This document shows positions 20,606 through 43,033 of a stretch of DNA of 64,000 nucleotides, one piece after another (position 1 is the first letter of the stretch; the number at the start of each line of letters is the position of its first letter). Position numbers and translations under genes: made by a program. The stretch spans positions 2,670 to 66,669 of the forward strand of contig SHYW01000010.1 in assembly GCA_009692615.1 (NCBI GenBank), given 5' to 3'. This stretch comes from Deltaproteobacteria bacterium. Its GTDB lineage: Bacteria; Desulfobacterota; Binatia; UBA9968. A model generated the notes under the pieces. That model was not told where the DNA came from, searched no databases, and saw only the letters and a list, made by a program, of their open reading frames with translations.

Positions 20606-20680
20606 TCATTCGTTCAAGGTTCAAAAGTTCTAAGTCGGACACATTGAGAAGTCTTCAGTATTTTAAGGAGAGCCGGGTTG

Positions 20681-21727: not shown

Positions 21728-21809
21728 CTATTAGCGATCAACGGTCATTTATTAATTTTGGGCTTGCGCTGGTAACCGATAACTGAATACTGACGGCTCA
21801 CGGAGGTCG

Positions 21810-26287: not shown

Positions 26288-26373
26288 GATAGTCAGATGT
26301 CCGCTTTACAACGTTGCAACTACTGCCAGATGGCACTACACTAGCTGCCAGTAGAAATTTTAGGAGCAATCAA

Positions 26374-26808
26374 ATGCAATCAATGGAATCACTCGTAGAC
26401 GCACTTGGTGGCCGCAAAGTTTTGAAGCGGCGAATCGCGAACTTGGCCGACTTGAGAGAAACGGTTAAGGGAGGCCTCCCGTATGCATCCTTCGAGGCAT
26501 TGTCGGCACGACTCGGCTTGGGACGGGAAGAAGCAGCAAACGCCCTACATTTACCTCATCGAACCAATGCAAGAAGGAAAAAGCAGCGGAGATTGCTTGC
26601 CGACGAGTCCGATCGCGTGCTGAGAATGGCGCGCGTTGGCGCCCAGGCCGCGGAAACTTTAGGTAGCGAAGCCAAAGCCGCCGAGTGGTTGCGCCGCCCG
26701 AATCGCGCCTTGGGCAATGTACCGCCGCTAGAACTGCTCGACACCGACATCGGCATTCGGCAGATCGAAGAAGTTCTAGGTCGCATCGAGCACGGCATCG
26801 TAAGCTAG
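26374..26808 (+). CDS. Xre/ParS/MbcA-type antitoxin (DUF2384 C-terminal domain)
   Basis: ATG 26374 follows AGGAG. The C-terminus AAEWLRRPNRALGNVPPLELLDTDIGIRQIEEVLGRIEHG is characteristic of RES-partner antitoxins. Confidence 0.85.
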   Translation: MQSMESLVDALGGRKVLKRRIANLADLRETVKGGLPYASFEALSARLGLGREEAANALHLPHRTNARRKKQRRLLADESDRVLRMARVGAQAAETLGSEAKAAEWLRRPNRALGNVPPLELLDTDIGIRQIEEVLGRIEHGIVS

Positions 26809-27263
26809 TGCGAGTCTGGCGCATTGCGTTGAGAAAATTTCGCCGCTTCGACGGCGAAGGCGCACGGCAATATGGCGGCCGATGGAATCACTCGGGCGGG
26901 TCAGCCGTCTACACCTCTGAGTCATTGTCGCTCGCCGCATTGGAACTATTTGTTCACTTCGACACCGATCTTGCCCCCGAAGATTTGGTCGCCATACCCG
27001 CTGAAATTCCAGACAACGTGAAGATCGAACATCTCGAGACTGCGATGTTGCCGAGAAACTGGCGGGACTTCCCCGCTCCCGAAGCGCTCAAGGATATTGG
27101 CTCATCCTGGTTAGTCAGGAACACCACTGCGATCATGTCCGTCCCGTCCGCGCTAATCCCAACGGAGTGCAATTATCTGCTGAACCCAAAACAGAAAGAC
27201 TTTAGACGCATTCGAATCGGTACACCGATCCCGTTTCGTTTCGACCCGAGGATGTGGAAATAA
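26808..27263 (+). CDS. RES-domain toxin (NAD+-targeting ParT/MbcT family)
   Basis: GTG 26808 overlaps the antitoxin TAG by 1 nt. VRVWRIALRKF..GEGARQYGGRWNHSGGSAVYTSESLSLAALE is the RES signature region. Confidence 0.85.
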   Translation: MRVWRIALRKFRRFDGEGARQYGGRWNHSGGSAVYTSESLSLAALELFVHFDTDLAPEDLVAIPAEIPDNVKIEHLETAMLPRNWRDFPAPEALKDIGSSWLVRNTTAIMSVPSALIPTECNYLLNPKQKDFRRIRIGTPIPFRFDPRMWK

Positions 27264-27276: not shown

Positions 27277-29211
27277 ATGAATCGAATCATTTCCCCCTAT
27301 GGCTCCTGGAAGTCGCCGATCAGCGCCGACATCGTCGCCGGCGGCGAAATCGGTCTGGAGCAAATCCGCATCAATCTCAACAGGGGCGACGACATCTATT
27401 GGATCGAACGCCGCTCTCAAGAAGGCGGCAGAAAAGTCATCGTCCGCCGTTCTGCAGACGGCAACATAACGGATGTGACGCCAACCGGATTCAACGCCCG
27501 TAACCGCGTGCACGAGTACGGCGGCGCCGACTATGCAATTTCGAATGACGCCATCGTCTTCTCAAACTTCGCCGATCAGCGGCTGTATCGGCAAACCCTG
27601 GCTGGAGAACCGCAGCCGTTAACGAAGCAAGGCAACTATCGTTACGCCGACGGCCAGATCGACCGGCCCAGAAATTTATTTTACTGCGTGCGCGAAGATC
27701 ATTCCGCTCCGGGCGAAGCCGTCAACGCGATCGCACGCGTCGACCTTAACGGCGACAACTCTGGCGAGATCGTCGTTTCGGGAAATCATTTCTATTCTTC
27801 GCCGCGTCTGAACCCCGACGGCTCACAACTCGCTTGGCTGACTTGGAATCATCCTAATATGCCGTGGGACGGCACCGAGCTTTGGCTCGGCAAACTAGGC
27901 GACAACGGCGCAGTGATTGAGCAAATAAAGATCGCCGGCGGCGTTGATGAATCGATCTACCAGCCCGCATGGTCGCCTGACGGCGTGCTCCACTTCGCTT
28001 CCGATCGTACCGGCTGGTGGAATCTCTATCGGTGGCGTGAAAATCAAATTGAAGCGCTGTGCCCGATGGCCGCCGAGTTCGGCCAACCGCAATGGACATT
28101 CGGCGGCTCGCTTTACGGCTTCGCATCCGACAAACAAATTATTTGTAGCTACACGAAGAACGGCAACGATTATCTCGCCACGCTCGACATAGAAACGAAA
28201 AACTTGCGCGACATCGAACTTCCCTATTCAGCCATTTCACAAGTCCGCGTCACTGGAAACCGCGTCGTCTTCATCGGCGCGTCCGCAACCGAGACAAGCG
28301 CGGTTGTCGCCTTGGATCTTTCGACGAAACGATTCGAAGTGTTGCGCAGGTCGCGCGACACCGCCGTCGAAGACGGTTATCTCTCCGAAGCGCGGGCGAT
28401 CGAATTCCCAACCGAACAAGGTTTAACCGCGCACGGATATTTTTATCCGCCGCGGAATCGCGACTACGCCGCGCCGGCAAACGAAAAGCCGCCGCTATTG
28501 GTGCTGAGCCACGGTGGACCGACCTCGTCGAGTTCCGGCTCATTGAAATACTCGATTCAATATTGGACCAGCAGAGGCGTCGCAGTGCTGGATGTCAACT
28601 ACGGCGGCAGCTCCGGCTACGGCCGCGCCTATCGCGAAAGATTGAACGGCCAGTGGGGTATCGTCGACGTCGACGACTGCGCCAACGGCGCGCGCTATCT
28701 CGCGGAGCGAGGCGAAGTCGACGCTAATCGCTTGGCGATACGCGGCGGTAGCGCCGGCGGCTACACGACGCTGTGCGCGCTGACATTTCGCGATATATTC
28801 AAAGCCGGCGCCAGCCACTACGGCATCAGCGATCTCGAAGCGCTCGCCAAAGACACCCACAAGTTCGAGTCGCGCTATCTCGACCGTCTGATCGGTCCGT
28901 ATCCCGAACGCCGCGATCTCTACGTCGAACGTTCGCCGATCCATTTCACCGACCAATTAAATTGCCCGATGATCATCTTCCAAGGCCTAGAAGACAAAGT
29001 TGTCCCACCCAATCAAGCTGAGAAAATGGTCGAGGCCGTGCGGACGAAAAAACTTCAGGTAGCCTATCTGACTTTTGAAGGCGAGCAACACGGCTTTCGC
29101 AAAGCCGAAAACATCAAGCGCGTGCTCGAAGCGGAGCTGTATTTCTACTCGAAGGTGTTCGGATTCGAGCTGGCCGTGCCGGTGGAGCCGGTTGAGATCG
29201 AGAATCTGTAA
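27277..29211 (+). CDS. S9-family serine peptidase (prolyl oligopeptidase / acylaminoacyl-peptidase-like)
   Basis: 644 aa. A beta-propeller N-region is followed by an alpha/beta catalytic domain with GGSAGGYT (nucleophile Ser) and ..FQGLEDKVVP..EGEQHGF (Asp/His regions). Confidence 0.9.
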   Translation: MNRIISPYGSWKSPISADIVAGGEIGLEQIRINLNRGDDIYWIERRSQEGGRKVIVRRSADGNITDVTPTGFNARNRVHEYGGADYAISNDAIVFSNFADQRLYRQTLAGEPQPLTKQGNYRYADGQIDRPRNLFYCVREDHSAPGEAVNAIARVDLNGDNSGEIVVSGNHFYSSPRLNPDGSQLAWLTWNHPNMPWDGTELWLGKLGDNGAVIEQIKIAGGVDESIYQPAWSPDGVLHFASDRTGWWNLYRWRENQIEALCPMAAEFGQPQWTFGGSLYGFASDKQIICSYTKNGNDYLATLDIETKNLRDIELPYSAISQVRVTGNRVVFIGASATETSAVVALDLSTKRFEVLRRSRDTAVEDGYLSEARAIEFPTEQGLTAHGYFYPPRNRDYAAPANEKPPLLVLSHGGPTSSSSGSLKYSIQYWTSRGVAVLDVNYGGSSGYGRAYRERLNGQWGIVDVDDCANGARYLAERGEVDANRLAIRGGSAGGYTTLCALTFRDIFKAGASHYGISDLEALAKDTHKFESRYLDRLIGPYPERRDLYVERSPIHFTDQLNCPMIIFQGLEDKVVPPNQAEKMVEAVRTKKLQVAYLTFEGEQHGFRKAENIKRVLEAELYFYSKVFGFELAVPVEPVEIENL

Positions 29212-29331
29212 GGCACGCACGAGTGAAGGCTTGTCAAATTGCCCGTCAACGCGCAACTAAATTTCCTTATCCATTGACTGTTCAGATTTAGATAGTTTAT
29301 AACTACCTCCTGACACTGGAAGTGTCCCCCG

Positions 29332-30432
29332 ATGATCAACCCATCACAGACTTTCGACGATTGGTACGTAAAAAGCTCTTATCAGGATTTTGTTAAGCAA
29401 GAAGGAGTCCCTCTATACGAAGGCAGCGCGATCGAGGATCTCGCCGCGCTGCCCCTGAGCGATTGGGAGAGAAGAGGGGGAAAGGCCGCGTATACCCGCC
29501 TGGGCGACCAGGAAATCTACAACCTTCAAATCGTGGAGATCCCGGCCAAAGGCGAATTGAAACCCGAGCGCCACATGTACGACTCGGTCATGTACGTCAT
29601 GCAAGGGAGAGGAGCCACGGCGGTTTGGCAGCCGGGTGAGCCCAAACACACCATCGAATGGGAAGAGGGAGCGCTGCTAGCGATCCCTCTGAACGCGTGG
29701 CATCAGGAATTCAATAGCTCGGGCACTGAACCCTGCAGAATACTTTTCGGCACCAACATGGCTCAGGTTATTAACCTGTACCACAATCTGGAATTTGTCT
29801 TTAACAACGACTTTTGTTTCCGCGATCGGTACTCGTTTGCGATGCAGGATTACTTTTCAGGGAACGGCAAACACTGGAATTTACGACTCCACGAAACCAA
29901 TTTCATTGCAGACATCCGCAAGTTGAATCTCGACCCTTATCCTGAACGGGGCAACCGAACATCGATCATGCGCCTTGCGATGTCCAACACCTCCATCGGC
30001 ATGCACGTAATGAGCGCTTCCGAAGGAACCTACGTCACCGCGCACCGGCATGATGCGCGCGCGCACGTGATTGTCATCGAGGGCCAAGGCTATGAGCTGC
30101 TCTTCATGCCCGGGGAAGAAAAGAACCGCCGCAAGGTGCGGACTCGTCCTTACGGGGTGGTGGCCCCTCGGACCAACGAGTTCCATCAACACCACAACAC
30201 CGGGAAGGGTGACTATAAAATGTTGGCCTTTCGGGGTAGCGGTTTGCGTTACGGGAGTGGCAGAAGCTACAACCCGGCGCTCACCGCGCAGGATAAAGAT
30301 CCGTACTCCAAGTACGGCTTCAAGATCTCCTATGAGCGGGAAGATCCCGCGATCCGAGAGGACTATTACAAAGAGCTGGAAAAAAATAACATCCCGCACC
30401 GACTCAACCCGGTCGAGCAAAGCGGCGGCTGA
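29332..30432 (+). CDS. Bicupin-domain protein (dioxygenase-like)
   Basis: 366 aa with two cupin-like cores (..ERHMYDSVMYVMQGRG.. and ..TAHRHDARAHVIVIEGQGYELLF..EFHQHHN). The precise activity is unknown. Confidence 0.55.
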   Translation: MINPSQTFDDWYVKSSYQDFVKQEGVPLYEGSAIEDLAALPLSDWERRGGKAAYTRLGDQEIYNLQIVEIPAKGELKPERHMYDSVMYVMQGRGATAVWQPGEPKHTIEWEEGALLAIPLNAWHQEFNSSGTEPCRILFGTNMAQVINLYHNLEFVFNNDFCFRDRYSFAMQDYFSGNGKHWNLRLHETNFIADIRKLNLDPYPERGNRTSIMRLAMSNTSIGMHVMSASEGTYVTAHRHDARAHVIVIEGQGYELLFMPGEEKNRRKVRTRPYGVVAPRTNEFHQHHNTGKGDYKMLAFRGSGLRYGSGRSYNPALTAQDKDPYSKYGFKISYEREDPAIREDYYKELEKNNIPHRLNPVEQSGG

Positions 30433-30459
30433 GAACAATGAAACGAAGATGACCTGCCT

Positions 30460-31929
30460 ATGGAATCCGAGCATACCGTAAAGAGCCTCCACAGTTTTCT
30501 CGACGATGTCCGTGCTTTGGACCCGGGATACTTGCTGAACGTGGAAGAAGAGCTGGATCCCCGGTTCGAAATTTCCGCCTTACTGGTAAAGTTGGACCAC
30601 GCGCGCAAATTCCCCATTGTGATGTTTCGCCGGGCGAAAGATGTTCAGGGAAATCCGTCCCGCTTTCCGCTCCTTTCCAATCTCTTTGCCAGTCGCCGGC
30701 TCTGCGCGCTGGCGCTGGACTCCACCGTCGAGAGAGTGGGCCTAGACTTCGACTTGAAAAGCCAGAACACAAGACCGCCACTGGTGATCGCCAAAGAGCA
30801 AGCGCCGGTCAAGCAGTGCATTCTCGTCGGCGATCAGGCCAACCTTTATGACTTTCCTGTCCCGCTGCCCTATCACATGGAGGGAGGCCGCACGATCCTG
30901 GGTTCTATCATCACGACGGTGGATAAGGACACCCGGAAAATTTACAACTGCGCGTACCAGACCCTGAGGGTTTTGGGACCGAGACGAGCGACGATGGGTT
31001 TAGGAGAGGGTAGTCATAATTGGGAACGTTTCCGCGAACGGCGAATCCACGGCGAGCCTACACCCTTTGCAGCTTGGATCGGCCACCATCCCGCCGCGTG
31101 TCTAGGCTCCCTAACACGCGCCTCCATCGATGTCGACGAGTATTCGGTCATCGGCGGCATCCTCGATCAACCGCTTCGGCTGGTTGCATCGGAAACCTGG
31201 GGCGAGGATTTTCTTGTGCCGGCCGACGCGGAAATTGTCATCGAGGGAGTGATCCTGCCAAACGAGAAAGGCCGCCACGGGCTCCGCGCCGATTTCGCGC
31301 GCTATTATTCGCCGGAAACGCTTCGGCCCATTGTGGAGATCCACGCGATCACCCACCGCCGCGGCGCCATATATCACGACATCCACCTGGGCGGACGGGA
31401 CCAAGACCACTTGGGAGGAATTCCCCTCGAAGGGGCGGTGTATCGTGCCGTCAAACAGGCCGTGCCCACGGTAAGAAACGTTCATCTTCCCTCATCGGGC
31501 TGCAGCCGCTTTCACGCCTACGTGCAAATCATGAAAACCGCTCCGGGCCAAGGAAGAGAGGCGATCGTCGCCGCCCTTGCCGTTGATCGGCGCTTAAAAC
31601 ATATCGTGGTGGTAGACGAAGACATCGATGTTTTCGATGACGCGGATGTGCTTTGGGCGGTAGCGACGCGCAGCCGCTGGGATCGAGATCTGGTGGTTAT
31701 TCCCAATATGGTTTCAACCACTCGCGACCCGACGGCCTACGCGGTTGGCCCTGAAGATCTTAGTTACCAGGCCTATACTGTCGCCAAGGGCGGCATCGAC
31801 GCAACCAAACCGGCGGCGCCGGAGCCCTTCGAAATCAAGATTCAGGTGCCAGAGGAAACCATGCGCAAGGTTGATTTGGAGAAATGCGTCGGCAGCGCTA
31901 ATTTGGCACGAATCCCATCTGACGCTTAA
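30460..31929 (+). CDS. UbiD-family (prenyl-FMN-dependent) decarboxylase
   Basis: 489 aa. The N-terminus LHSFLDDVRALDPGYLLNVEEELDPRFEISALLVKLD..PIVMF and the overall length fit the UbiD family. Confidence 0.75.
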   Translation: MESEHTVKSLHSFLDDVRALDPGYLLNVEEELDPRFEISALLVKLDHARKFPIVMFRRAKDVQGNPSRFPLLSNLFASRRLCALALDSTVERVGLDFDLKSQNTRPPLVIAKEQAPVKQCILVGDQANLYDFPVPLPYHMEGGRTILGSIITTVDKDTRKIYNCAYQTLRVLGPRRATMGLGEGSHNWERFRERRIHGEPTPFAAWIGHHPAACLGSLTRASIDVDEYSVIGGILDQPLRLVASETWGEDFLVPADAEIVIEGVILPNEKGRHGLRADFARYYSPETLRPIVEIHAITHRRGAIYHDIHLGGRDQDHLGGIPLEGAVYRAVKQAVPTVRNVHLPSSGCSRFHAYVQIMKTAPGQGREAIVAALAVDRRLKHIVVVDEDIDVFDDADVLWAVATRSRWDRDLVVIPNMVSTTRDPTAYAVGPEDLSYQAYTVAKGGIDATKPAAPEPFEIKIQVPEETMRKVDLEKCVGSANLARIPSDA

Positions 31930-32117
31930 TGGGAGAAAGTCGCATTATGGCCAGCTCAATCAGAATTACATGTCCCGGTTGTAATCAGGAGTTCTTGGTT
32001 TCTCCCCAGTTCGAAAAGCTAAGGATCGCAGCCAAGTGTCCGTTTTGCGAAAACGAATTCGCTATCGCAGATGGCAAGAACGTCGTCCGGCCAACTCCTA
32101 TCTTACTAGTCAAATAA
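31929..32117 (+). CDS. Small zinc-ribbon protein (CPxC..CPxC)
   Basis: ITCPGCNQEF..AKCPFCENEF. ATG 31929 overlaps the UbiD stop (TAATG). An alternative ATG 31947 follows GGGAGAAAG. Confidence 0.5.
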   Translation: MGESRIMASSIRITCPGCNQEFLVSPQFEKLRIAAKCPFCENEFAIADGKNVVRPTPILLVK

Positions 32118-32136
32118 TTCGACAAAGAAAGATACC

Positions 32137-33237
32137 ATGCTACGAAGAACGCGCCCTCGCTGGTGGTACTTCGTACCGGTTTGCGCGGTTTTCCTGCTCT
32201 CCTCGTTTTGGCTCAGCGTTCAGGGGGCGGAAATGGCCAGTCGGCTTCCCGAGCGAATAAACAATCTCGCCGCACCGGAGCGAGAAAACTTGTTGGTGGA
32301 GGGGGCAAAAAAAGAAGGCGCGGTCATGTGGTACGCGAACTGGGCGGGCGACGAGGTCGAGAAGATCTCGCAGGGATTCAAGAAAAAATATCCACTCATC
32401 AACGTTCTCGTCTTTCGCGGTGTCAGCGGTAAAGTTGAAGACAAAATTACCACCGAGTACCGGGCGGGGAAGCACCTTGCCGATGTAGTTCTCGCCGGCA
32501 CGTCGAAGATGGCGCTTTTTCGCGAAGGTGGAATCATCGGTCGCTATCTGTCGCCCCAAGTGCGCGCTCTGCAGCCCAAACTTTACGATAGAGACGGTTG
32601 GTGGGTGAGCTTGGCCATGAGTCCGACGGTGATCGGGGCGAACACCAATCTCGTTGCTCCTCAGGAAACTCCCAAAGAGTGGCGCGACCTGCTCGACCCT
32701 AAGTGGAAAGGGAAAATAGGACTCGATACGGAGCCTGACATCATGATTTTGGGGATGGTTCAGGCTTGGGGCGATGAAAAGACTCTGGAATTTATCCGCG
32801 CGCTGGCGCGAAACCAACCGCAGATCCGCAGCGGCCACACGCTCCTCGCCCAGCTGGTGGCTGCCGGCGAGCTTCCAGTTGGAGCGGAGTTGTACGGCTA
32901 CCGGGTGGCCGAGCTGATTGCAAAAAAGGCGCCCTTGCGGATGTCATATCCTAACCCGGCCATTTTTAGTCTGTCACCGATCATGACGGCCGCGTTGCCG
33001 CCTCACCCGCATGCCGCGGCGCTCTTTTATGATTTCCTCCTCTCGGAAGAGGGCCAGACTATAATTGGAACGGACATCGGCAGAACCCCGGTGCGCAAGG
33101 GTATTCCCGCGCGCAATCCCGAATTCGTCAAAGTGCAGGAATCCGACGCGTTCCTCCCTTTGGACCCGTTGATGGCCGGCAAAAAGAGCAACGAAGCGAA
33201 ACGCTGGATCAAAGAAATCCTTCTTGTTCGCAAGTGA
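32137..33237 (+). CDS. ABC transporter substrate-binding protein, Fe3+/AfuA-like family 1
   Basis: 366 aa with a signal peptide. KKEGAVMWYAN..GFKKKYPLINVLVFRG resembles the SBP at 23095. Confidence 0.8.
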   Translation: MLRRTRPRWWYFVPVCAVFLLSSFWLSVQGAEMASRLPERINNLAAPERENLLVEGAKKEGAVMWYANWAGDEVEKISQGFKKKYPLINVLVFRGVSGKVEDKITTEYRAGKHLADVVLAGTSKMALFREGGIIGRYLSPQVRALQPKLYDRDGWWVSLAMSPTVIGANTNLVAPQETPKEWRDLLDPKWKGKIGLDTEPDIMILGMVQAWGDEKTLEFIRALARNQPQIRSGHTLLAQLVAAGELPVGAELYGYRVAELIAKKAPLRMSYPNPAIFSLSPIMTAALPPHPHAAALFYDFLLSEEGQTIIGTDIGRTPVRKGIPARNPEFVKVQESDAFLPLDPLMAGKKSNEAKRWIKEILLVRK

Positions 33238-33333
33238 TTTTGTAACCGTGGCCGATTCGATCTGACGGCCGCAATGACCGCCTGACCGGATTCCATCAGC
33301 GCGCACACGCGCGATGATTCGCCTCAAGCCATA

Positions 33334-35040
33334 ATGCAAGCGGAGACAAGCCGACTGGACTGGAGGTCGCTCATTCTTCTCGGGACCGCCGGGATCGTGG
33401 TCTATCTCACCTTGATCCCCGTCATCATGGTCATTTACGGAAGTTTCCAGGACGGCCCGCCCGGAACCAAGACCCATTTCACCCTGCAGAATTATGCCCA
33501 GGCCTTTGCCAATTCAAATCTCGGCCGGGCCACCTGGAACTCTCTGATCTTTGCGCTCGGCGGCGGCAGCCTGGCGTTTTTCATCGGCTGCTTGCTCGCG
33601 TGGCTGACGGAGCGAACCAACATCCCTTTCCGCGGGTTGATCTATGGCGCCGTTTTCACGGAGATCATGATCCCCGGCATTATCGAGAGCATTTCACTCG
33701 TGCTGCTTTTCAGCCCCAAGATCGGCCTCGTGAACCTCGCTCTCATGAACCTGTTCGCGCTACCAGATCCGCCGTTCAACGTATACAGCATGGGAGGAAT
33801 GATCTGGGCGTTCGGCACGGGAAGCTTTACTACGGCATTTCTCCTCATCGCGGCGGCTTTCCGTTCCATGGACCCATCGCTGGAAGAAGCGGCAATCATG
33901 TCCGGTAGCGGCATCCTCCAAACGCTTCATCAGGTCACCTTGCGACTGATTTCTCCCGCCCTCCTGGCGACTTGGTTGTTGCTGTTTATTCGTGCGGTAG
34001 AGACCTTCGAAGAGGCGGTGATCCTGGGGCTTCCCGCGGGAATCACCCTGCTCGCGACCGAAGTATACTTGAGCGTCCGCGAGGTGCCGACCAATTACAA
34101 CCTCGGTGCCACGTTCGCGATGATTTATCTAGTCATCGCCGGAGCGGGACTGTTGCTCTACTTTCGCGCGACGCGCCACGCCGAGAAATACGCGGTCATT
34201 ACCGGCAAAGGCTTCCGCCCTTACGTCATGAATCTCGGCCGAGCGCGCTATCTGTGCGGTTCTCTCGCTCTGTCTATCTTGAGCTTGGTTCTCGGCCTCC
34301 CTGTCCTGGTGATTCTCTATGCGTCTTTTCTTCCTTGGTACGGGTCCCCGTCCGCGAGCATGTTTCGGCTATTCTCCCTGGACAACTACCGTTGGCTGAT
34401 CACCTACAACGCGATTCTAAACGCGCTGGGCAATAATTTGATCGTCGGTCTCGGCAGCGCCAGCATCTGCGTATTTCTCACCTCGATCGTCGCTTGGATC
34501 GTCATCCGCACGAACATCCCCGGACGCAAGCTCCTCGATGCGCTCGCCTTCTCACCCATCGCCTTTCCGGGCATGGTCTTCGGCCTTTCACTCCTTTGGC
34601 TGTATCTGACCGTTCCGATCCCAGTCTATGGCACGCTATGGATTCTGGTGATTGCCTACGTGAGCAAGTATATGCCGATCTGCATGCGCGCCTGCAGCAC
34701 CGCTCTCACGCAGGTGCATAAAGAGCTCGAAGACGCTTCGCTGATGAGCGGCGCCTCCTGGTGGTATACTTTTTCCCGCGTACTCGTGCCGTTGATCCTT
34801 CCGGGAATGTTTGTCGGCTGGGTCTACGTGCTGACCATGAGTTTTAAAGTCCTGTCTCTGCCCGTCCTTCTCGGGCACGCGGGCACGGAGGTCATCCCGG
34901 TTCTTATCTTCGACCTTTACGAAGGCGGGCAGTACACCCAGCTCAACGCGCTTGGCGTCGCCGTAGTGGCTCTGGTTACCGCTCTGACTTTGCTAGCACG
35001 GCGCGTAAGCCAGCGGTTCAGCGTGGCGGAGATCCGATAG
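33334..35040 (+). CDS. ABC transporter permease, fused double-TMD (FbpB/AfuB-like)
   Basis: 568 aa, highly hydrophobic, with two repeated permease halves. It sits between the SBP and the ATPase. Confidence 0.85.
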   Translation: MQAETSRLDWRSLILLGTAGIVVYLTLIPVIMVIYGSFQDGPPGTKTHFTLQNYAQAFANSNLGRATWNSLIFALGGGSLAFFIGCLLAWLTERTNIPFRGLIYGAVFTEIMIPGIIESISLVLLFSPKIGLVNLALMNLFALPDPPFNVYSMGGMIWAFGTGSFTTAFLLIAAAFRSMDPSLEEAAIMSGSGILQTLHQVTLRLISPALLATWLLLFIRAVETFEEAVILGLPAGITLLATEVYLSVREVPTNYNLGATFAMIYLVIAGAGLLLYFRATRHAEKYAVITGKGFRPYVMNLGRARYLCGSLALSILSLVLGLPVLVILYASFLPWYGSPSASMFRLFSLDNYRWLITYNAILNALGNNLIVGLGSASICVFLTSIVAWIVIRTNIPGRKLLDALAFSPIAFPGMVFGLSLLWLYLTVPIPVYGTLWILVIAYVSKYMPICMRACSTALTQVHKELEDASLMSGASWWYTFSRVLVPLILPGMFVGWVYVLTMSFKVLSLPVLLGHAGTEVIPVLIFDLYEGGQYTQLNALGVAVVALVTALTLLARRVSQRFSVAEIR

Positions 35041-35042
35041 AG

Positions 35043-36152
35043 ATGATGATCCGCGCTCACAATTTGAAGAAAGCGTTTGCCACCCAGGAGGAAAAAGTTT
35101 CCGCTTTAAATGGGATCGGCTTTGACGTCGAGTCCGGCAGCTTCTTTACTCTCTTGGGGCCTTCGGGATGCGGCAAGACCACCACCCTTCGCTGTATCGC
35201 GGGACTGGAGAGGCCCGATGAAGGAGAGATCGCGATCGGCGACAGGACCGTCTTCTCCTCTTCGCAGCGCATTTTTATTCCCGGAAATAAGCGCGATATC
35301 GGAATGGTTTTCCAGTCCTATGCGATCTGGCCGCACATGACCGTATACGGGAACGTTGCCTATCCTTTGCGGGCCAGGGGGCGGCCGCGAGCCGAGATTG
35401 AAGAAAAAGTTCATGCCGCGCTCAAGCTGGTGGGATTAGAGGATTTCCACGACCGGCTGGCGCCGCGGCTTTCCGGTGGGCAGCAGCAACGCGTCGCGCT
35501 CGCGCGCGCGTTGGTTGCGGAGCCGAGCGTCCTTCTCTTGGATGAGCCACTCAGCAACCTCGACGCCAAGCTGCGTAACCAGATGCGCTGGGAACTCAAG
35601 GACCTGCAGCGGCGGCTCGGAACCACGACGATTTACGTGACCCACGATCAAGTCGAAGCGCTGGCGATTTCGGATCGCATCGCGCTGATGAATAAAGGTC
35701 AAATCGCGCAGATCGGGACTCCGCGGGAGATCTATGCCAACCCGGTGAACGAGTTTGCCGCTGACTTTATCGGCGCCGCGAATATCATCAGTGGGGAGCT
35801 GAGCGAGGAGATAGACCATCGTAGCTTTGCGCGCATCACGACATCCTTTGGGGTGCTGATGGCGACGCAAAAGGGAGAGCTGAATAAGGCGTCGAAGGAT
35901 GTGCTGATCGCTTTCAGACCCGAGGATGTGTCACTAGTGAGCCAAGCGACTTGCGCCGAGGGTCAGCATAATGTTTTCCAAGGAATTGTCCAGGGATCGA
36001 CCTACCTTGGGGACTCAAGCGAATTTAGGATAACGGTTGGAGAACAGAGAATCCAGGCCAAAACAGATAGTACCACCCATTTCCCCGTCGGCGCCGTCGT
36101 CTATCTCAGTATCGCGCCGGCAGCGTGTCTAGTTATTCGCCGCGGCGATTGA
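35043..36152 (+). CDS. ABC transporter ATP-binding protein (FbpC/PotA-like)
   Basis: It has Walker A GPSGCGKTT, the signature LSGGQQQRVALARAL and Walker B LLLDEPLSNLD, plus a C-terminal regulatory/TOBE-like region. Confidence 0.95.
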   Translation: MMIRAHNLKKAFATQEEKVSALNGIGFDVESGSFFTLLGPSGCGKTTTLRCIAGLERPDEGEIAIGDRTVFSSSQRIFIPGNKRDIGMVFQSYAIWPHMTVYGNVAYPLRARGRPRAEIEEKVHAALKLVGLEDFHDRLAPRLSGGQQQRVALARALVAEPSVLLLDEPLSNLDAKLRNQMRWELKDLQRRLGTTTIYVTHDQVEALAISDRIALMNKGQIAQIGTPREIYANPVNEFAADFIGAANIISGELSEEIDHRSFARITTSFGVLMATQKGELNKASKDVLIAFRPEDVSLVSQATCAEGQHNVFQGIVQGSTYLGDSSEFRITVGEQRIQAKTDSTTHFPVGAVVYLSIAPAACLVIRRGD

Positions 36153-36425
36153 GAATAACCCTGCGGAGCGTGATCATTATCGCCTCAACACCTGCGTCAT
36201 ATTTGCATTCGTCTTTAGGCACTCAATCCTGGTTTGGATTTGTCGGAGCCTTGTGGGCGATACGCCACACTGCTCGTCAACCGCCCCAAAACAAAGATTT
36301 CCAGCCCTGCGCGTGTCCGCGCCGTTCTTAATCTACAAGGAGAAAAACTTACTTGACATCAATAATAATTAAATCTAAACAATAGGCTCCGCGACGATTT
36401 TAACCGAGAAGAACAAACCCTGAAT

Positions 36426-37409
36426 ATGTCGATCCTCTTCCTTCTCCAACTTTTGGGTACATGTCTCGCCTTGATATTAACGTTTGGGCAGGGGTTTAGC
36501 GCCGAGCCGCAAAAACTCGATCGCCTGAAGATCGGCTATGCTTCGATCAGCGGCAACCGGATCTCGCTATGGGCGACGCAAGATGCCGGTTTTTTTTCCC
36601 GTCATGGCATTCAAAGCGAGCTTATTTTTTTTCCTACGTCTGCACAGGGAATGCCGGCTCTTCTGGCTGGGGAGGTGCCGATATACTTAGGATCGGCGGA
36701 CACCGCAGCCCTAGCGGCGGCGCGGGGCTTTGAACTGGTCATATTTGCGAGCAATGAACCGACTCAATATAAGCTTATCGTCCAGCCCCATATTAGGAGC
36801 GTGAATGAATTGAGGGGACAAAGAATCGGCGTCGATCGTATCGGCAGCTCGAGCTATTACGCGACCAAAAGGATGCTAGAGAAGCTTGGGCTAAAAGCGC
36901 AAGACATGAAATTCTTGCCGGTCCCCGGCGGTGGGAATCAAAGAGCAGCGGCTTTCAGCTCGGGCAATCTCGAAGCGGTTGTCTCCACTGTTGAACGGTT
37001 CGAGCGCGCGAAGATTCCGTATCATGTTTTGGCAGATGCTGTCAGCATGGGTATTCGGGTGTTCGGCAATTCGTTTATCACGCCGCGTGTCTTTCGCGAT
37101 CAGAATCGAGATATTCTCACGCGATTTATCAGAGCCTTGGTCGACGCGAGTTACTGGCTCAAGGATCCAAAGAACCGAGAGAGTGCGCTCAAGATAGTGA
37201 GCCAGAGGCTCAGAACCTCGGACCCGGCGGTATTGAGTCTTAATTATCGCCTCTACATAGAACCGCTAATACCTTTACCGTATACCGACATCAATGACCT
37301 AAGGACAAACATCGAAGATCTCGCCCAAGAAAATGCCAAGCTTCGAGATTTCGATGTCGCTCGGATGGTAGATAATAGTTTCATACGTCAGGTCCAGCAG
37401 GATCGCTAG
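36426..37409 (+). CDS. NMT1/SsuA-like substrate-binding protein
   Basis: 327 aa with a signal peptide and family blocks (IRSVNELRGQRIGVDRIGSSSYY, LEKLGLKAQD). Confidence 0.8.
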   Translation: MSILFLLQLLGTCLALILTFGQGFSAEPQKLDRLKIGYASISGNRISLWATQDAGFFSRHGIQSELIFFPTSAQGMPALLAGEVPIYLGSADTAALAAARGFELVIFASNEPTQYKLIVQPHIRSVNELRGQRIGVDRIGSSSYYATKRMLEKLGLKAQDMKFLPVPGGGNQRAAAFSSGNLEAVVSTVERFERAKIPYHVLADAVSMGIRVFGNSFITPRVFRDQNRDILTRFIRALVDASYWLKDPKNRESALKIVSQRLRTSDPAVLSLNYRLYIEPLIPLPYTDINDLRTNIEDLAQENAKLRDFDVARMVDNSFIRQVQQDR

Positions 37410-37938
37410 CTGGTCTCGCCCACTGGGGCAGATAGTATTTTCTGATTCTATACGTTCGGCAACTCCATCCGTAGCGCCAACCCCAGCACATAAACTAAAC
37501 GGCATTTTCCTGGTTCAGCGCACAAAGCAAGTGGGCTTGTGATTGAACGCGCCATCGACCGACGCGGCGCTAACCGTTTGGCATCGGGGTCGCTCGCCCA
37601 ATCCATTTAGTCGATCGGGGCAAAGAGTTCTTCAATCTTGAGGCGCCGATCGGTTAGCCTTAAACCGACAATAAAATTGGCGTCAGGCAGCCAATTTGAG
37701 TTTGTCCTCGATGGGTTCGATCCGTTCTTGCGCCGCAGGAGTCACCGAGAAGCGCCGCACTGAGTAGCCTTGAGGCCAGATAAGACATGCCGAATGGTGA
37801 ATCCGCTTGAATCGGATCGTTTTCAACCTGTGTAGCAAGTAACCGCAAGTCCGTTTGCGCGATCTGGGCTTTGTTGTCGCCAGCGTCTGGAGCTGAAAGT
37901 TTCGTAGCAGGTTGTGGCTCAACACCGAGATCCGTTGC

Positions 37939-38136
37939 CAGGCCGAGAAAATGATCCAAGCCGTGCGCGCGAAAAAACTCCCGGTGGCCTATCTGACGTT
38001 CGAAGGCGAACAACACGGTTTCCGCGAAGCGGAGAACATCAAGCGCGTGCTTGAAGTGGAGCTATATTTCTACTCGAAAGTGTTTGGATTCGTACTGGCT
38101 GACCCGGTTGAGCCGGTGGAAATCGAAAATCTATAG
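37939..38136 (+). pseudogene. Displaced 3' fragment of an S9 peptidase gene (last 65 codons), copy 2
   Basis: [65 protein letters not shown] compares with the intact gene end [65 protein letters not shown]. Of 65 residues, 57 are identical. Homology stops abruptly upstream of codon Q. Confidence 0.85.
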
Positions 38137-38234
38137 AAACTCGCTGGCGCTTTTTCTCGCGCCGATGATCGGTGGTTTTTTGCCGGGTGCGCTGGTAGAA
38201 TTACGTTACTGACGCCCTTTAAACGTTAATATTT

Positions 38235-38585
38235 ATGGATACAGCCGCGGATCGGAAAAGCATCTATCCGGAAGTTGACGAAGAACTTCTCAAGGGAGTA
38301 GTTCGCCGTATTTGTGAAGCAGGAAGCCCTCACAAGATCGTTCTCTTCGGTTCCCGGGCTCGTGGCGATGCCCGTCCTGACAGCGATCTCGATGTGCTCA
38401 TTATTGAAGACTCAAACCTACCTCGGTACCAGCGAGCTACACGTTATCGCCGCGCGCTCTTGGGTTTGTTTCCAGCCAAGGACATTGTGGTTTGGACGCC
38501 GGCAGAAATTCACGAGTGGAGCGAAGTGCCCCATGCTTTCATCAGTATGGCGCTAAGAGAAGGCAAAGTTCTTTATGAAGGATAA
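38235..38585 (+). CDS. Nucleotidyltransferase-domain antitoxin (MntA-like)
   Basis: IVLFGSRARGDARPDSDLDVLII is the minimal-nucleotidyltransferase GS..RG..D.D motif. Confidence 0.85.
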   Translation: MDTAADRKSIYPEVDEELLKGVVRRICEAGSPHKIVLFGSRARGDARPDSDLDVLIIEDSNLPRYQRATRYRRALLGLFPAKDIVVWTPAEIHEWSEVPHAFISMALREGKVLYEG

Positions 38586-38961
38586 GGTCGCCCACGCCCG
38601 CGGCTGGTTCCTGAAAGGGGACAGCGACTTCGCGGATGTGCGGCGCACGGTGATCAGTGAAGGCCCTTTCGACACCGCGTGTTTTCACGCCCAGCAGGCG
38701 GCGGAAAAATATTTGAAGGGTCTGCTAGCGCACTTCGACGAGCCGATCCCCAAGACCCATGACATCGAGGAGCTCCAGCGACTCTGCCTCCCCCTTGCGA
38801 AAAACCAAAAGCTAGCTGAAATGGATCTGACGGTGCTTTCAGATTACGCTGTCCCCGCCCGGTACGACTTGGAGTTTTGGCCGGATCGGGACACGGCTGC
38901 TGACGCTCTGGCTCTCGCCGAACAGGTTCGCGAGATTGTCCTTGCCATTGTGTCACAATGA
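38575..38961 (+). CDS. HEPN-domain toxin (HepT-like)
   Basis: 128 aa overlapping the MNT gene by 11 nt. It has the HEPN helical pattern (FHAQQAAEKYLKGLL..KTHDIEEL..PARYD). Confidence 0.8.
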   Translation: MKDKVAHARGWFLKGDSDFADVRRTVISEGPFDTACFHAQQAAEKYLKGLLAHFDEPIPKTHDIEELQRLCLPLAKNQKLAEMDLTVLSDYAVPARYDLEFWPDRDTAADALALAEQVREIVLAIVSQ

Positions 38962-38982
38962 CGACCATCCTCGAACGCGTCG

Positions 38983-39015
38983 GAAGTGGAAACGGTGCAG
39001 ATCGAAAATCTTTAA
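38983..39015 (+). other. Possible third, very short remnant of the S9 peptidase 3' end
   Basis: GAAGTGGAAACGGTGCAGATCGAAAATCTTTAA encodes EVETVQIENL*. The intact gene ends [10 protein letters not shown]. By hand alignment, 21 of 26 nt match copy 2 just before the stop. Confidence 0.4.
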
Positions 39016-39027
39016 ACCGACAAAGTT

Positions 39028-39753
39028 ATGCCTGGTATAGATTCACTATCTCCGACGACGCTCATCATGGCAACGGCCATCATGATGCTTGGCGCCGCCA
39101 TTCAATCAGCGGTTGGAATCGGATTAGCGCTCGCTGCGGCTCCGCTACTGACGCTTCTTGAGCCACGATTCGTACCGGGACCGATGCTCTGTGCTTCAAT
39201 AGTCCTAGCGCTGGCAACCGCATGGCGCGAGAGAACAGCCATAGCGCAGGATCAACTTAACACATCGTTGCTGGGGCTGGTGATTGGCACTGGGATTGGA
39301 GCGAGCGCACTCACTATCATTACTCCCGACATTCTCCCGAAAGTTTTCGGCGTGTTCGTTCTCATTGCAGTGGCAATCAGCGTTTCTGGATTTTCGCTTC
39401 AGCCCACTTTGCTCGCGCTGGTTTTAGGTGGCACCGCGTCCGGCATTATGGGAACCATGATCGGAATTCACGGACCGGCGATAGCTTTGGTATATCAGAA
39501 CGTCGCGCCAGCGCGCGCACGCGCGACCCTGGGAGCATTTTTTACGGTGGGGTATTTGATCACTGTACTAGCTCTGGTTTGGATAGGCGTTTTCGGTTCG
39601 ACGGATCTTGCATTGTCGGTTATTCTTACTCCTGGAGTTCTCCTCGGTTGGGCCATCGGACCCAAACTCACACCGTTTTTGGACCCGCGCAGAACGAGAG
39701 CAAGTATCCTGACACTTTCCGCTCTCACGGCGTGTGCAAACTTGCTGAAATAA
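39028..39753 (+). CDS. TauE/SafE (TSUP) family membrane transporter, sulfite-exporter-like
   Basis: 241 aa, polytopic and glycine-rich in the helices (AIQSAVGIGLALAAAPLL). This is the DUF81-type pattern. Confidence 0.7.
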   Translation: MPGIDSLSPTTLIMATAIMMLGAAIQSAVGIGLALAAAPLLTLLEPRFVPGPMLCASIVLALATAWRERTAIAQDQLNTSLLGLVIGTGIGASALTIITPDILPKVFGVFVLIAVAISVSGFSLQPTLLALVLGGTASGIMGTMIGIHGPAIALVYQNVAPARARATLGAFFTVGYLITVLALVWIGVFGSTDLALSVILTPGVLLGWAIGPKLTPFLDPRRTRASILTLSALTACANLLK

Positions 39754-39778
39754 CGCACAGCTTAAACAATAAATAGCC

Positions 39779-40480
39779 ATGACCTACCGCGCAATCATTT
39801 TCGATCTCTTCGGCACCTTGGTGAACGACTTTATGTCGGTCACTGGCCAAACCCACGATGAACTCGCGGCGATTCTCCGCGTGCCTTATGAACCGTTCAT
39901 GAAACAGTGGCGCGAGATAACCGGACGACGCACGATGGGAGAGTTTCAGACTGTCGAAGCCAGCATCGACCACGTCTGCGCTGCGCTCGGTGTGATGGTG
40001 AATGCCGATCAAATGGTCCAAGCCGTCGAGTTTCGCTTGGCGTACACCCGGCGTGCGCTCGTGCCCAAATTGGATGCCGTCTCAACATTAACGCAATTGA
40101 AACAAACAGGTTTCCAAGTCAGCCTGCTGAGCAACTGCTCCATCGAGATTCCGATCTTGTGGCCGGAAACCGAATTCGCCGACTTAATCGAAAGCCCTAT
40201 CTTCTCTTCTCGCGAGCGGCTGAAGAAACCCGACCCGCGCATCTACCGAATCGCCTGCGAGCGCCTGGGCGTCGCGCCGAAAGATTGTCTCTACATCGCC
40301 GACGGAGAAAATCACGAGCTGAAAGCTGCCGCCGATTTTGGCATGAGCCCAGTGTTGATCCGACCCACTTCGCATGAGCCTCGCGGCGAATTGCGCCAGG
40401 AAGCAAGAGAGTGGCAAGGGACAAATATTTCGACGTTGTCTGAAGTATTGGTCATCGTCGGCAACGAGCGCAGATTGTGA
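39779..40480 (+). CDS. HAD-superfamily hydrolase
   Basis: Motif I is IIFDLFGTLV. The later SN and ..YIADGENHELKAA motifs are also present. Confidence 0.85.
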   Translation: MTYRAIIFDLFGTLVNDFMSVTGQTHDELAAILRVPYEPFMKQWREITGRRTMGEFQTVEASIDHVCAALGVMVNADQMVQAVEFRLAYTRRALVPKLDAVSTLTQLKQTGFQVSLLSNCSIEIPILWPETEFADLIESPIFSSRERLKKPDPRIYRIACERLGVAPKDCLYIADGENHELKAAADFGMSPVLIRPTSHEPRGELRQEAREWQGTNISTLSEVLVIVGNERRL

Positions 40481-40492
40481 AAACTAAGCAGT

Positions 40493-40984
40493 ATGACGAT
40501 TCGCGACGCCACTGAAACCGATCTGCCAGCCATCTTAGAAATATACAACGCGGCAATCCCCGGCCGCATGGCTACCGCGGATACGCAAACGGTAACAGTC
40601 GAAAGCCGGCGCAACTGGTTCCATGAACATGATCCAAACACGCGGCCACTTTGGATCGCTCTAGAGAATGATGTCATCGTCGGCTGGCTAAGCTTTCAAT
40701 CGTTCTACGGCCGCCCTGCTTATCATGCGACGGCTGAGTTGAGCGTTTACGTAGCCTCCCAACATCGGCGCAAAGGAATAGGCAGCGCGCTTCTCACCGA
40801 AGCGATCGCACGGGCGCCGCGCTTGACACTAAAAACTCTCGTCGGCTTCATATTCGCGCACAATGAACCGAGCCTGCGGCTGTTCGAAACGTTCGGCTTT
40901 CAACGCTGGGGAGTTTTGCCGAGGGTTGCCGAGCTCGACGGCGTGGAGCGCGATCTGGTAATTGTTGGGCGACGCTTGGCGTGA
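40493..40984 (+). CDS. GNAT N-acetyltransferase, phosphinothricin/methionine-sulfoximine acetyltransferase-like
   Basis: IRDATETDLPAILEIYNAAI..HRRKGIGSALL..GFQRWGVLPRVAELDGVERDLVIVGR is typical of PAT-type GNATs. Confidence 0.8.
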   Translation: MTIRDATETDLPAILEIYNAAIPGRMATADTQTVTVESRRNWFHEHDPNTRPLWIALENDVIVGWLSFQSFYGRPAYHATAELSVYVASQHRRKGIGSALLTEAIARAPRLTLKTLVGFIFAHNEPSLRLFETFGFQRWGVLPRVAELDGVERDLVIVGRRLA

Positions 40985-41016
40985 ACTGAATACAGGACCG
41001 GTCTCTGAAGGAAACC

Positions 41017-41670
41017 ATGAGTCGACTCCCCCGCAGATTGTACTTTACATTATTGCTTTTGCTGGTTGGCAGTTCTGCCGCCGCTGAACCGAATGTTTGG
41101 GAAGATTCGTTCAACGCCCAAACCAAAGAGCGCTATTTCCCGGTCGAACTCTGGGCTGGCGTCGAATGGGATGGCAATCGCGAGTTGAAGATGCCGAAGT
41201 CCGATTTCACCTTCCGTCATCGATCCGAATACCGCATCAAAGGCCCGGTGGAGTGGGAACATCCGGTGATGCGCCAAACGTTTACGGTTTACGAACGATT
41301 GAACCCAGGCCGCGGCGGAATGAAAACTCAGAGATTCACGATCAACCAAGAAAGAAACGGCCTGGGCCGCGTCTACGACGACCGATCGGAGCTGGGCACG
41401 CGAATGTTTTCCGACGGCCTCAAGTTTCCCTTGGGAGTTTGGAAAGAGGGCGAGACGCGCAAGTTTGTCTACAAACATTTTGAAGGCGCGCGGGTCAGCG
41501 ACCGCGCCGAGACGATCACGATCAAGCAAATCGATTTTAAATTTTTCCAAAGCTCCCACTGCGTAGAATTCTATTGGACCGCCACCGATCGCGACGAGAA
41601 ACGCTATTACGATCGCCAGACCTATGTTTACTGCCCCGGCAAAAGCATGGTCAGTCAGATTCAGCACTGA
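41017..41670 (+). CDS. Hypothetical secreted protein
   Basis: 217 aa with signal peptide RRLYFTLLLLLVGSSAAAEP. I recognise no family. I prefer it over the 401-aa antisense ORF. Confidence 0.5.
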   Translation: MSRLPRRLYFTLLLLLVGSSAAAEPNVWEDSFNAQTKERYFPVELWAGVEWDGNRELKMPKSDFTFRHRSEYRIKGPVEWEHPVMRQTFTVYERLNPGRGGMKTQRFTINQERNGLGRVYDDRSELGTRMFSDGLKFPLGVWKEGETRKFVYKHFEGARVSDRAETITIKQIDFKFFQSSHCVEFYWTATDRDEKRYYDRQTYVYCPGKSMVSQIQH

Positions 41671-41673
41671 AGG

Positions 41674-42408
41674 ATGACCGATTCGATGACCGCCTACGAC
41701 CGATTTGCAAAATACTACGACCGGGTCATGGGCGATCGCTCGGCGGCGGCGGATTACATTGGCGATCTCATCGAGCGCTACCACCCAGAGGCGAAGACAG
41801 TTTTGGAAATCGCCTGCGGCACCGGCGGCATAACGGGCCGGCTGTCCGAATCCTACGATGTCACCGGCCTCGACCGCTCGCGGAAAATGTTGGCTATCGC
41901 GCGCCAACGGTTGCCGCACATCCATTTTCACCGCCAAGACATCACCAGCTTTCGCGTCAACCGGCGCTTCGACGCTATCGTCTGCGCCTTCGACTCGATC
42001 AATCATTTGCATCGATTCGCTGACTGGCGGAAAACCTTTCGTTGCGTTGCTCGCCATCTCAACAGCGGCGGCGTTTTCGTTTTTGACGTCAATACCAACG
42101 GCAAACTTCAGCGTCTTGTCGAAGGGTCGGCGTGGATCAAACCGTTCGGCCGCGATCTCGTGGTGATCAAAGTTAACCAAGGACGCAGAGCAATTTTCAC
42201 CTGGGATGTAAAAATCTTTGCGCATCGGAAAGGCGATAGCTATAAACTCATTCACGAGACCATTGAAGAGATTGCCGTTCCAATGACCCGCATTTTGACT
42301 TGCTTACGAAGTAAATTTACGGCAGTCAAAGTGTTCGATCCCGAAGGCGGGCGGCCATCGGATCGCTCGGAGCGGCTGTACTTCGTCTGCAAAGCAAAAG
42401 CGAAATGA
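41674..42408 (+). CDS. Class I SAM-dependent methyltransferase
   Basis: Motif I is VLEIACGTGG, followed by post-I VTGLDRS and ..FDAIVCAFDSINHL. Confidence 0.85.
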   Translation: MTDSMTAYDRFAKYYDRVMGDRSAAADYIGDLIERYHPEAKTVLEIACGTGGITGRLSESYDVTGLDRSRKMLAIARQRLPHIHFHRQDITSFRVNRRFDAIVCAFDSINHLHRFADWRKTFRCVARHLNSGGVFVFDVNTNGKLQRLVEGSAWIKPFGRDLVVIKVNQGRRAIFTWDVKIFAHRKGDSYKLIHETIEEIAVPMTRILTCLRSKFTAVKVFDPEGGRPSDRSERLYFVCKAKAK

Positions 42409-42425
42409 CGCAGATCTAAATTCGC

Positions 42426-42932
42426 ATGATAATCCGCCAAGCGACAATCGCAGACGCAGCCGACTTGGTCGCAGCGGAGCAAGAAACCGCGCGCACCGCG
42501 GGCTTGCTCGTCTCCCGCCCCGATGAACTGAAGCGCGCTGCGTTCGAGCACAAGATCGCCGAACTCGCCACCACGGGTCGTTATATAGTTGCGGAGAGCA
42601 ACGGCGAGATCGTCGGCCATGCGCTGTTAGATCCAATGCCACTGACGGCGACCGCTCATGTCCTTCGTCTGACGATCGTCGTGCACCCAGGTTTTCTCGG
42701 CCGCGGCATCGGCGAAGCCCTCATGCGCGACCTCATGGATTGGGCGGAGCGAACAACCAAGGCGCGGAAAATTGAATTGCTGGTTCGCGCTACAAATGCG
42801 CGTGCGATTCATTTATATTCCAAGCTCGGCTTTGTCGAAGAAGGGCGCTTTAAAAACCGCTTACGTTTGCCGGATGGAAACTATATCGACGACATCGCCA
42901 TGGCGTGGTTTCCAATGCGCAAGCATGATTAA
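42426..42932 (+). CDS. GNAT-family N-acetyltransferase
   Basis: 168 aa. ..VHPGFLGRGIGEALM.. is the acetyl-CoA binding motif, and ..YSKLGFVEEG is also present. Confidence 0.8.
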   Translation: MIIRQATIADAADLVAAEQETARTAGLLVSRPDELKRAAFEHKIAELATTGRYIVAESNGEIVGHALLDPMPLTATAHVLRLTIVVHPGFLGRGIGEALMRDLMDWAERTTKARKIELLVRATNARAIHLYSKLGFVEEGRFKNRLRLPDGNYIDDIAMAWFPMRKHD

Positions 42933-43033
42933 TTGCGGCGCATCGGTGGCAAAAGGGTCGGCCATTTTGTTCCGCATGATCGACACATTGTGCTATTGTT
43001 CACCGACCGGAAATTCCATTTAGAAAGTTGAAT

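Follow-up and report, generated by a model that had tools for sequence, protein, structure and literature searches.

The stretch of DNA analysed here (the window) comprises 64,000 nt of contig SHYW01000010.1 (assembly GCA_009692615.1, positions 2,670 to 66,669 of the forward strand) from a deltaproteobacterium placed by GTDB in the Binatia (Desulfobacterota; Binatia; UBA9968). It encodes on its plus strand an S9 peptidase of 644 amino acids (27277-29211; Pfam Peptidase_S9, E 2.4e-52) that aligns over its full length to orthologs, and the 3' end of this gene is met twice more downstream. Tail 1, as we call the functional end, is the last 198 nt of the intact gene (29014-29211, plus strand). Tail 2 (37939-38136, plus strand) consists of the last 65 codons and the stop codon of a diverged peptidase ortholog, and tail 3 (38986-39015, plus strand) of the last nine codons and the stop codon of what is likely the oldest resident peptidase end. 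Both are displaced, and they are unequal in length (198 nt and 30 nt, respectively). Between tails 1 and 2 lie, according to Pfam, genes for a cupin protein, a UbiD-family decarboxylase, a three-gene ABC transporter and an NMT1-like binding protein, along with a remnant of an IS1380-family insertion sequence (IS), while an MNT-HEPN toxin-antitoxin pair is the sole content between tails 2 and 3. Apart from the IS remnant, this gene content is as described in an initial annotation made from the sequence alone, which had also proposed that two nested insertions each displaced a peptidase 3' end.

All three gene ends are real. Tails 1 and 2 align without gaps at 164 of 198 nt (82.8%, which the initial annotation had estimated by eye as four-fifths) and 57 of 65 amino acids, with a stop codon in both, and homology of tail 2 to every peptidase ortholog starts at 37939 with a sharp edge. 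The third end had been recognised from the peptide EVETVQIENL*, the translation of 38983-39015; firm homology is restricted to 38986-39015, where tail 3 is identical to tail 1 at 24 of 30 nt and to tail 2 at 23 of 30, with tails 1 and 2 sharing 24 of 30 over the same stretch. Despite its shortness this match is significant: after tail 3, the best other 30-mer on either strand of the window scores 19/30, and the top score in a shuffle control (n=200) was 22/30, seen once. The longest block identical across all three tails is 5 nt. A MAFFT alignment would extend tail 3 upstream to ~38969 with a 2-nt gap, an extension that we rejected, as the local alignment to the closest relative (L241, see below) halts at 38986. 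The ATG of a TauE-like gene (39028) follows the end of tail 3 after 12 nt.

In public gene calls tail 2 appears as a protein-coding gene for 61 amino acids (P0001, 37951-38136) with an internal ATG as start. The called product contains the motif GEQHGF, where the catalytic histidine of the S9 fold is likely located; the call corresponds to a displaced fragment and not to a gene. A terminator after tail 2 was also considered and rejected, since the hairpin found by a pattern scan folds no better than its shuffles (z -1.05).

Divergence of the tails

The differences between tails 1 and 2 (33 of 195 coding positions) fall 4, 4 and 25 times at codon positions 1, 2 and 3, giving a synonymous divergence (dS) of ~1.0, a nonsynonymous divergence (dN) of 0.059 and a dN/dS of 0.059 (binomial p 1.5e-9 against neutrality), and neither indels nor stops separate the two over 65 codons. 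Their identity of 83% is comparable to that of each tail to the tails of other species in the clade (76-85% at the nucleotide level). Residues unseen in 18 relatives number four in tail 2 and three in tail 1, and functional relatives have 0-5 of them. Given the bias of the differences toward third positions, tails 1 and 2 diverged within working genes of different lineages and not by decay in place. Purifying selection thus acted on both as parts of functional genes, and tail 2 has decayed little since its displacement. A breakpoint scan of the peptidase gene and comparisons of the tails with relatives gave no usable signal as to which tail is native.

The left edge of tail 2

The 530-nt interval between the NMT1-like gene and tail 2 contains the 3'-terminal 294 nt of an IS1380-family IS (37654-37947, minus strand), cut within the transposase gene. 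What is left includes one terminal inverted repeat (37654-37671), the stop codon of the transposase (37683-37685) and its last 87 codons (37686-37946), all on the minus strand. In a protein search the two open minus-strand frames of 37683-37938 matched transposase fragments with PF13701 and PF01609, and tblastn placed the last 87 codons of the transposase at 37946-37686 on the minus strand with 76% identity (E 1.5e-38). These 87 codons are 69-76% identical to proteins matching NF033539, the IS1380 model (E 5.8e-46), and PF13701; the family is assigned through this match of the homologs, the remnant alone being too short for scoring. As DNA, 37947-37654 is 81-87% identical to IS copies in two other loci (L239 and L240), where the full IS is ~1.52 kb long and both 18-nt inverted repeats, TTAACCCTAAnCCGACAA, are present. 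The remnant keeps a single inverted repeat and has lost the opposite end, and the IS1380 sequence in the window is therefore a fragment and not a complete element. The initial annotation had stated that no integrase, transposase or tRNA is present. With the remnant the transposase part of this statement falls, while the part on tRNA stands, as scans for tRNA and Rfam families found none; a search of the region for tyrosine and serine recombinases (Pfam; protein search of 37683-37938) found only the DDE transposase fragment.

Homology to the IS reaches 37947 and homology to the peptidase starts at 37939, so that 9 nt, CAGGCCGAG (37939-37947), are common to the IS and peptidase parents. Around this overlap the IS copies read TGCCAGGCCGAG/TTCGCC, the peptidase orthologs AAT/CARGCNGAR-AAAATG (slash, edge of the overlap) and the window GTTGC-CAGGCCGAG-AAAATG. 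Both independent IS copies have CAGGCCGAG at the matching position, and the sequences of the peptidase orthologs are compatible with it; at least 6 nt of the overlap are certain. The left edge of tail 2, which had been noted as an abrupt end of homology at a codon for Q, is therefore a 6-9-nt microhomology joint of two internally truncated sequences. Internal truncation of both partners together with microhomology is the signature of illegitimate recombination and not of a recombinase core. In this joint the IS appears to have been a passive partner, and we saw no sign that it had moved the cargo.

A repeat pairing 37642-37671 with 38994-39023 (D10) was examined as a candidate fourth tail copy and dismissed, because all that remains of it is a match of 12 nt, which pairs the inverted repeat of the IS with the spacer of the peptidase and TauE genes. 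This exact match, TTAAACCGACAA, lies at 37660-37671 in the inner part of the terminal inverted repeat of the IS and at 39010-39021, across the peptidase stop and the TauE spacer. The same place in L241 matches at 10 of 12 nt, so that this spacer is of ancestral origin. Chance probably accounts for the match, although a preference of the IS1380 element for targets resembling its inverted repeat may lie behind it. In L240 the IS1380 copy adjoins an IS110-family transposase gene (DEDD_Tnp_IS110/Transposase_20) inserted in an ABC substrate-binding gene (925-1880), and this end of the L240 contig is rich in insertion sequences.

Relatives and the variable interval

The nearest orthologs of the peptidase are encoded in Binatia-type metagenome-assembled genomes (77-83% amino acid identity), and a scan of metagenomes returned relatives at 83% or lower. 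Gene order in the relatives is amidohydrolase, peptidase, a variable interval and HAD hydrolase, with a distance from the peptidase to the HAD gene of 35 nt to 3.2 kb. The interval is empty in L094 (35 nt) and L082 (69 nt) and non-coding in L002 (362 nt). Elsewhere it holds a gene for a PCMT-like methyltransferase (L001), a LanC-like gene (L084), methyltransferase, LanC-like and GNAT genes (L085), GNAT-like and DUF885 genes (L083) or further gene sets (L237 and L238); in L081 the start of the PCMT-like gene of L001 follows the peptidase stop, and the HAD gene was not recovered on the contig. As the content differs from relative to relative and two of them are empty, the peptidase-HAD interval is a variable hotspot. 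A second gene-end copy was found at none of 159 other loci with this peptidase (E<1), whose downstream content varies, and the remnants are particular to the lineage of the window.

The closest TauE homolog (80% amino acid identity) is encoded on L241 (GCA_041498115.1), whose peptidase gene is likewise the closest found (85% nucleotide identity over 1484 nt). In L241 the peptidase stop is followed by 12 nt and then the TauE gene, the empty site that the initial annotation had predicted. L241 is colinear with 38986-39756 of the window at 81% identity; the alignment begins exactly at the first base of tail 3, and tail 3 itself matches the L241 peptidase end at 27 of 30 nt. Tail 3 is thus a genuine former gene end, belonging to a peptidase gene that TauE once followed directly. 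The initial annotation had, however, taken the peptidase-TauE arrangement for the empty site, and the deepest empty state of the hotspot is instead the peptidase followed by the HAD gene, as in L082 and L094. Genome scans revealed no closer relatives of the TauE and NMT1 genes, and a scan with UbiD returned only L161, another Binatia genome.

A protein search with tail 2 returned many products of 60-110 amino acids on long contigs, which might have been recurrent remnants. This candidate was rejected, as L237 and L238 show full-length peptidases broken by frameshifts. L237 (ERZ25039541 contig_12296) and L238 are long-read assemblies in which apparent frameshifts split the peptidase into 2-4 called open reading frames (ORFs), and such split ORFs make short S9 peptidase proteins look more numerous in the protein collection than they are. 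In L237 a second HAD-like gene separates the amidohydrolase from the peptidase.

Assembly support

Because the source is metagenome-derived, from a community with related strains, reads of different strains could have been joined at short repeats. Independent Logan assemblies of three sequencing runs leave almost no room for such a chimera, an outcome that the initial annotation had named as one that would undo its proposal. L242 (SRR8561390) covers 35474-43489, L243 (SRR8561391) covers 35474-39069 and L244 (SRR12053441), from the third run, covers 38235-39309, all at 99.97-100% identity, so that the three agree across the junctions of the IS with tail 2, of tail 2 with the toxin-antitoxin pair, and of that pair with tail 3 and TauE. 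A 48.9-kb ENA contig agrees in gene order, beginning upstream of the peptidase and extending over the cargo as far as TauE, and the 9-nt overlap is far below the k-mer size of assemblers.

Origin of the displaced tails

Two acquisitions from related lineages would account for these features, each with a homologous anchor in the peptidase gene at one end and an illegitimate joint at the other, and we give this explanation a probability of roughly 0.6. Under this scenario, the peptidase-HAD hotspot was filled stepwise by DNA of related lineages in which the peptidase gene had different downstream genes. At one end the incoming DNA would have undergone homologous recombination within the conserved peptidase gene; as homology ceased beyond this gene, the other end would have been sealed by an illegitimate joint in the last codons of the resident gene. 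The donor gene end would then have become the working end, with the resident end left downstream as a dead fragment. The starting state was likely peptidase-TauE-HAD, as in L241. Tail 2 would have arrived next with the MNT-HEPN pair, leaving the 30 nt of tail 3. Tail 1 may then have come with the cupin/UbiD/ABC operon, the NMT1-like gene and part of the IS1380 element, leaving the 198 nt of tail 2, and in this last step the transposase gene would have been joined to the peptidase codons for Q-A-E at the 9-nt microhomology. From the structure we infer a crossover within the peptidase gene, which way the DNA was transferred and the sequence of the events. A mirror event anchored at TauE and HAD, bringing a foreign tail 2, the toxin-antitoxin pair and tail 3, fits equally well. 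What is observed are the tails themselves, their divergence under selection in different lineages, the truncated IS with its overlap, the arrangement in L241 that represents the starting state, and an interval that varies among relatives; they support the two nested displacements proposed in the initial annotation.

Several points weigh against this explanation. Sliding identity to L241, L081, L083 and L084 revealed no breakpoint inside the peptidase gene, which is the only conserved sequence to the left. A donor arrangement, with the cargo or MNT-HEPN immediately downstream of the peptidase, was absent from every collection searched. No relative of the toxin-antitoxin flank was found, so the joint at tail 3 is not characterised. 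A divergence of ~17% is near the limit for RecA-mediated exchange, and we know of no route by which Binatia take up DNA. Moreover, a one-step event and an integration followed by a deletion end in the same structure.

The latter route would start from circular DNA, for example a plasmid or an excised element, on which the cargo and an intact IS1380 copy accompanied a peptidase homolog. A single crossover in the peptidase gene would leave two full-length peptidase copies flanking the insert, and a later deletion at the 9-nt microhomology, reaching from the transposase gene into the second copy, would take away most of this copy and stabilise the insert. The identical final structure speaks for this route, as do tails that diverged as functional genes and a joint whose partners are both internally truncated, as expected from a deletion within one molecule. 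Nevertheless it is unlikely, as it needs two events when a single one would be enough, the region retains neither plasmid nor conjugation genes, and tandem full-length peptidase genes occur in no relative.

The initial annotation likened the locus to att-site accretion, by which two integrative elements would have inserted in tandem at the peptidase 3' end, each carrying a substitute end, and would later have lost their integrases to become decayed cis-mobilizable elements. Nested direct repeats of the target 3' end do bracket accessory modules that include a toxin-antitoxin pair, and the arrangement resembles the ssrA tandem islands in Dehalococcoides (PMC3146451) and decayed tandems of cis-mobilizable elements (CIMEs) and integrative mobilizable elements (IMEs) (PMC5704250). 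However, at its left boundary tail 2 has no att core but a microhomology joint of IS and peptidase sequence, the repeats differ in length (198 vs 30 nt), and with at most 5 nt identical in all three tails they have no common core. Neither a recombinase gene nor a remnant of one was found by Pfam on the genes of the region, in the ORFs of 37299-38016 or by the protein search of 37683-37938; the 159 peptidase loci show variable downstream content without repeats, and the operon in L161 lacks an adjacent peptidase end. Att-site accretion is therefore disfavoured, and we consider it improbable. Still less can be said for an origin within this genome, by local duplication of either the gene end or a tandem paralog and neutral decay of the unused copies. 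Although the direct repeats do lie on the same strand within 10 kb, this origin is refuted by the substitution pattern (4/4/25 differences by codon position and a dN/dS of 0.059, with the reading frame intact over 65 codons), and tail 2 is as near to the orthologs of other species as to tail 1. Divergence as working genes excludes duplication and decay and calls for DNA from another lineage; paralog decay, which the initial annotation had set against its own proposal, would also have led one to expect tandem full-length peptidase genes in relatives, and none has them.

The structure is a well-resolved scar of known recombination processes: with a broken IS fused at a 9-nt overlap in one joint, it reflects illegitimate recombination of an ordinary type rather than a novel class of mobile element. 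It provides a base-resolved natural record of how a variable hotspot may fill when donor and recipient share one flank only: the conserved gene serves as the anchor, and old gene ends accumulate downstream in their order of arrival. Searches for such scars could gauge how far one-sided homologous recombination, relative to integrases, feeds hotspots in uncultured bacteria. They would also aid annotation, as displaced tails get called as small genes like the 61-amino acid product on tail 2. Since the mechanism is already established, the value of the locus is illustrative and no concept is changed.

Comparison with known systems

Joints of 3-10 bp are described for homology-facilitated illegitimate recombination in the work summarised in PMC6382021 (de Vries & Wackernagel 2002; Prudhomme et al. 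2002; Meier & Wackernagel 2003). The locus in the window is similar in that one end would lie in a homologous anchor and the other lies at a short GC-rich microhomology, the 9-nt joint CAGGCCGAG of unrelated sequences falling within this range, and in that the donor was diverged, with tails that differ by 17%. Unlike in those studies, only a natural scar in an uncultured lineage is at hand, and the anchor crossover is unmapped. The window also differs in its two successive events at one gene end and the nested displaced tails that they would have produced.

Tandem islands bounded by copies of a gene 3' end are well known (PMC3146451; PMC5704250). As in ICESt1/CIME at fda, the ssrA islands of Dehalococcoides (PMC3146451) and the tandems covered in the IME review (PMC5704250), direct repeats of a 3' end bracket modules in the window, and of the several copies the one closest to the gene functions as its end. 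In contrast to these islands, the window has no recombinase, no shared core and unequal repeats, and one boundary is a truncated IS fused by microhomology; its repeats are gene ends of different lineages, 17-20% diverged, and not copies of one att site.

A substitute gene end is likewise brought by prophages e14 and 21, which integrate into icd of E. coli by means of an integrase at a defined core and in a reversible manner. There, as in the window, a diverged replacement for the last codons keeps the gene intact while the old end is displaced downstream. In the window, however, neither phage genes nor an integrase accompany the replacement, and the joint is illegitimate.

The IS resembles other members of the IS1380 family (NCBIfam NF033539), of which ISEcp1 is the best known, in that its homologs match the transposase model and the element has 18-nt terminal inverted repeats and a length of ~1.5 kb; unlike intact elements of the family, it survives in the window only as its last 294 nt. 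It may have mobilised the NMT1-like gene and the cupin/UbiD/ABC operon as a unit by one-ended transposition, by analogy with ISEcp1, and so have placed them downstream of the peptidase gene of the donor lineage. In the window the remnant forms the right end of the cargo, and its transposase reads towards the cargo. We consider such a mobilisation quite doubtful. If true, IS1380 elements would shift catabolic operons between hotspots in an uncultured soil phylum.

Cargo operon and flanking genes

A spacer (29212-29266) separates the peptidase stop from a leader (29267-29331, plus strand), at whose first base the blastn alignment to L161 begins. The leader resembles a promoter or operator region: upstream of the cupin gene it contains a conserved block, ATTGACTGTTSAGATTTAGATA (29277-29305 in the window, 8762-8790 in L161), that is promoter-like and may act as an operator. 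No regulator gene accompanying the cargo operon was found in the window. The operon itself (29332-36152, plus strand; Pfam) has five genes, for a bicupin (29332-30432), a UbiD-family decarboxylase (30460-31929), a solute-binding protein (32137-33237), an ABC permease (33334-35040) and an ABC ATPase (35043-36152). Its products are 68-87% identical to those of the L161 operon, with 70-75% nucleotide identity over the leader and operon (29267-35785). On the 3.57-Mb contig of L161 no peptidase or peptidase end lies near this operon, and the operon is thus a unit found at different places in different genomes. The NMT1-like solute-binding protein gene (36426-37409, plus strand; Pfam NMT1, NMT1_2) is missing from the L161 copy, and genome representatives contained no close relative of it. 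The cargo is atypical for the window in tetranucleotide composition, a comparison that the initial annotation had suggested (distance 0.0221; leave-one-out null with mean 0.0114 and maximum 0.0154), whereas the toxin-antitoxin and TauE segments are unremarkable.

The toxin-antitoxin pair comprises an MNT gene (38235-38585, plus strand; Pfam NTP_transf_2, PF01909, E 3.9e-13) and a HEPN gene (38575-38961, plus strand; Pfam HEPN, PF05168, E 6e-23) that overlap by 11 nt and have the characteristics of an MNT-HEPN pair. To the right follow the TauE-like gene (39028-39753, plus strand; Pfam) and the HAD hydrolase gene (39779-40480, plus strand; Pfam), the conserved right flank of the variable interval.

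On the other side of the peptidase gene, between it and the amidohydrolase gene, 26314-27263 encodes an Xre-like antitoxin and a RES-domain toxin. No homolog of this pair was found in the fetched loci of relatives, and no duplicated gene ends flank it. The gap between the amidohydrolase and peptidase genes is 20-117 nt in L001, L002 and L088 and 0.8-2.9 kb in L081, L082, L086 and L089. Given the Xre-RES insertion and this variation, the upstream side of the peptidase gene is a second variable spot. Farther upstream, at ~17412-22847, lie five tandem genes for solute-binding proteins of the NMT1/phosphonate-binding type (339-348 amino acids), followed by a binding-protein gene on the opposite strand; the NMT1-like protein of the cargo is only ~25% identical to relatives of these binding proteins.

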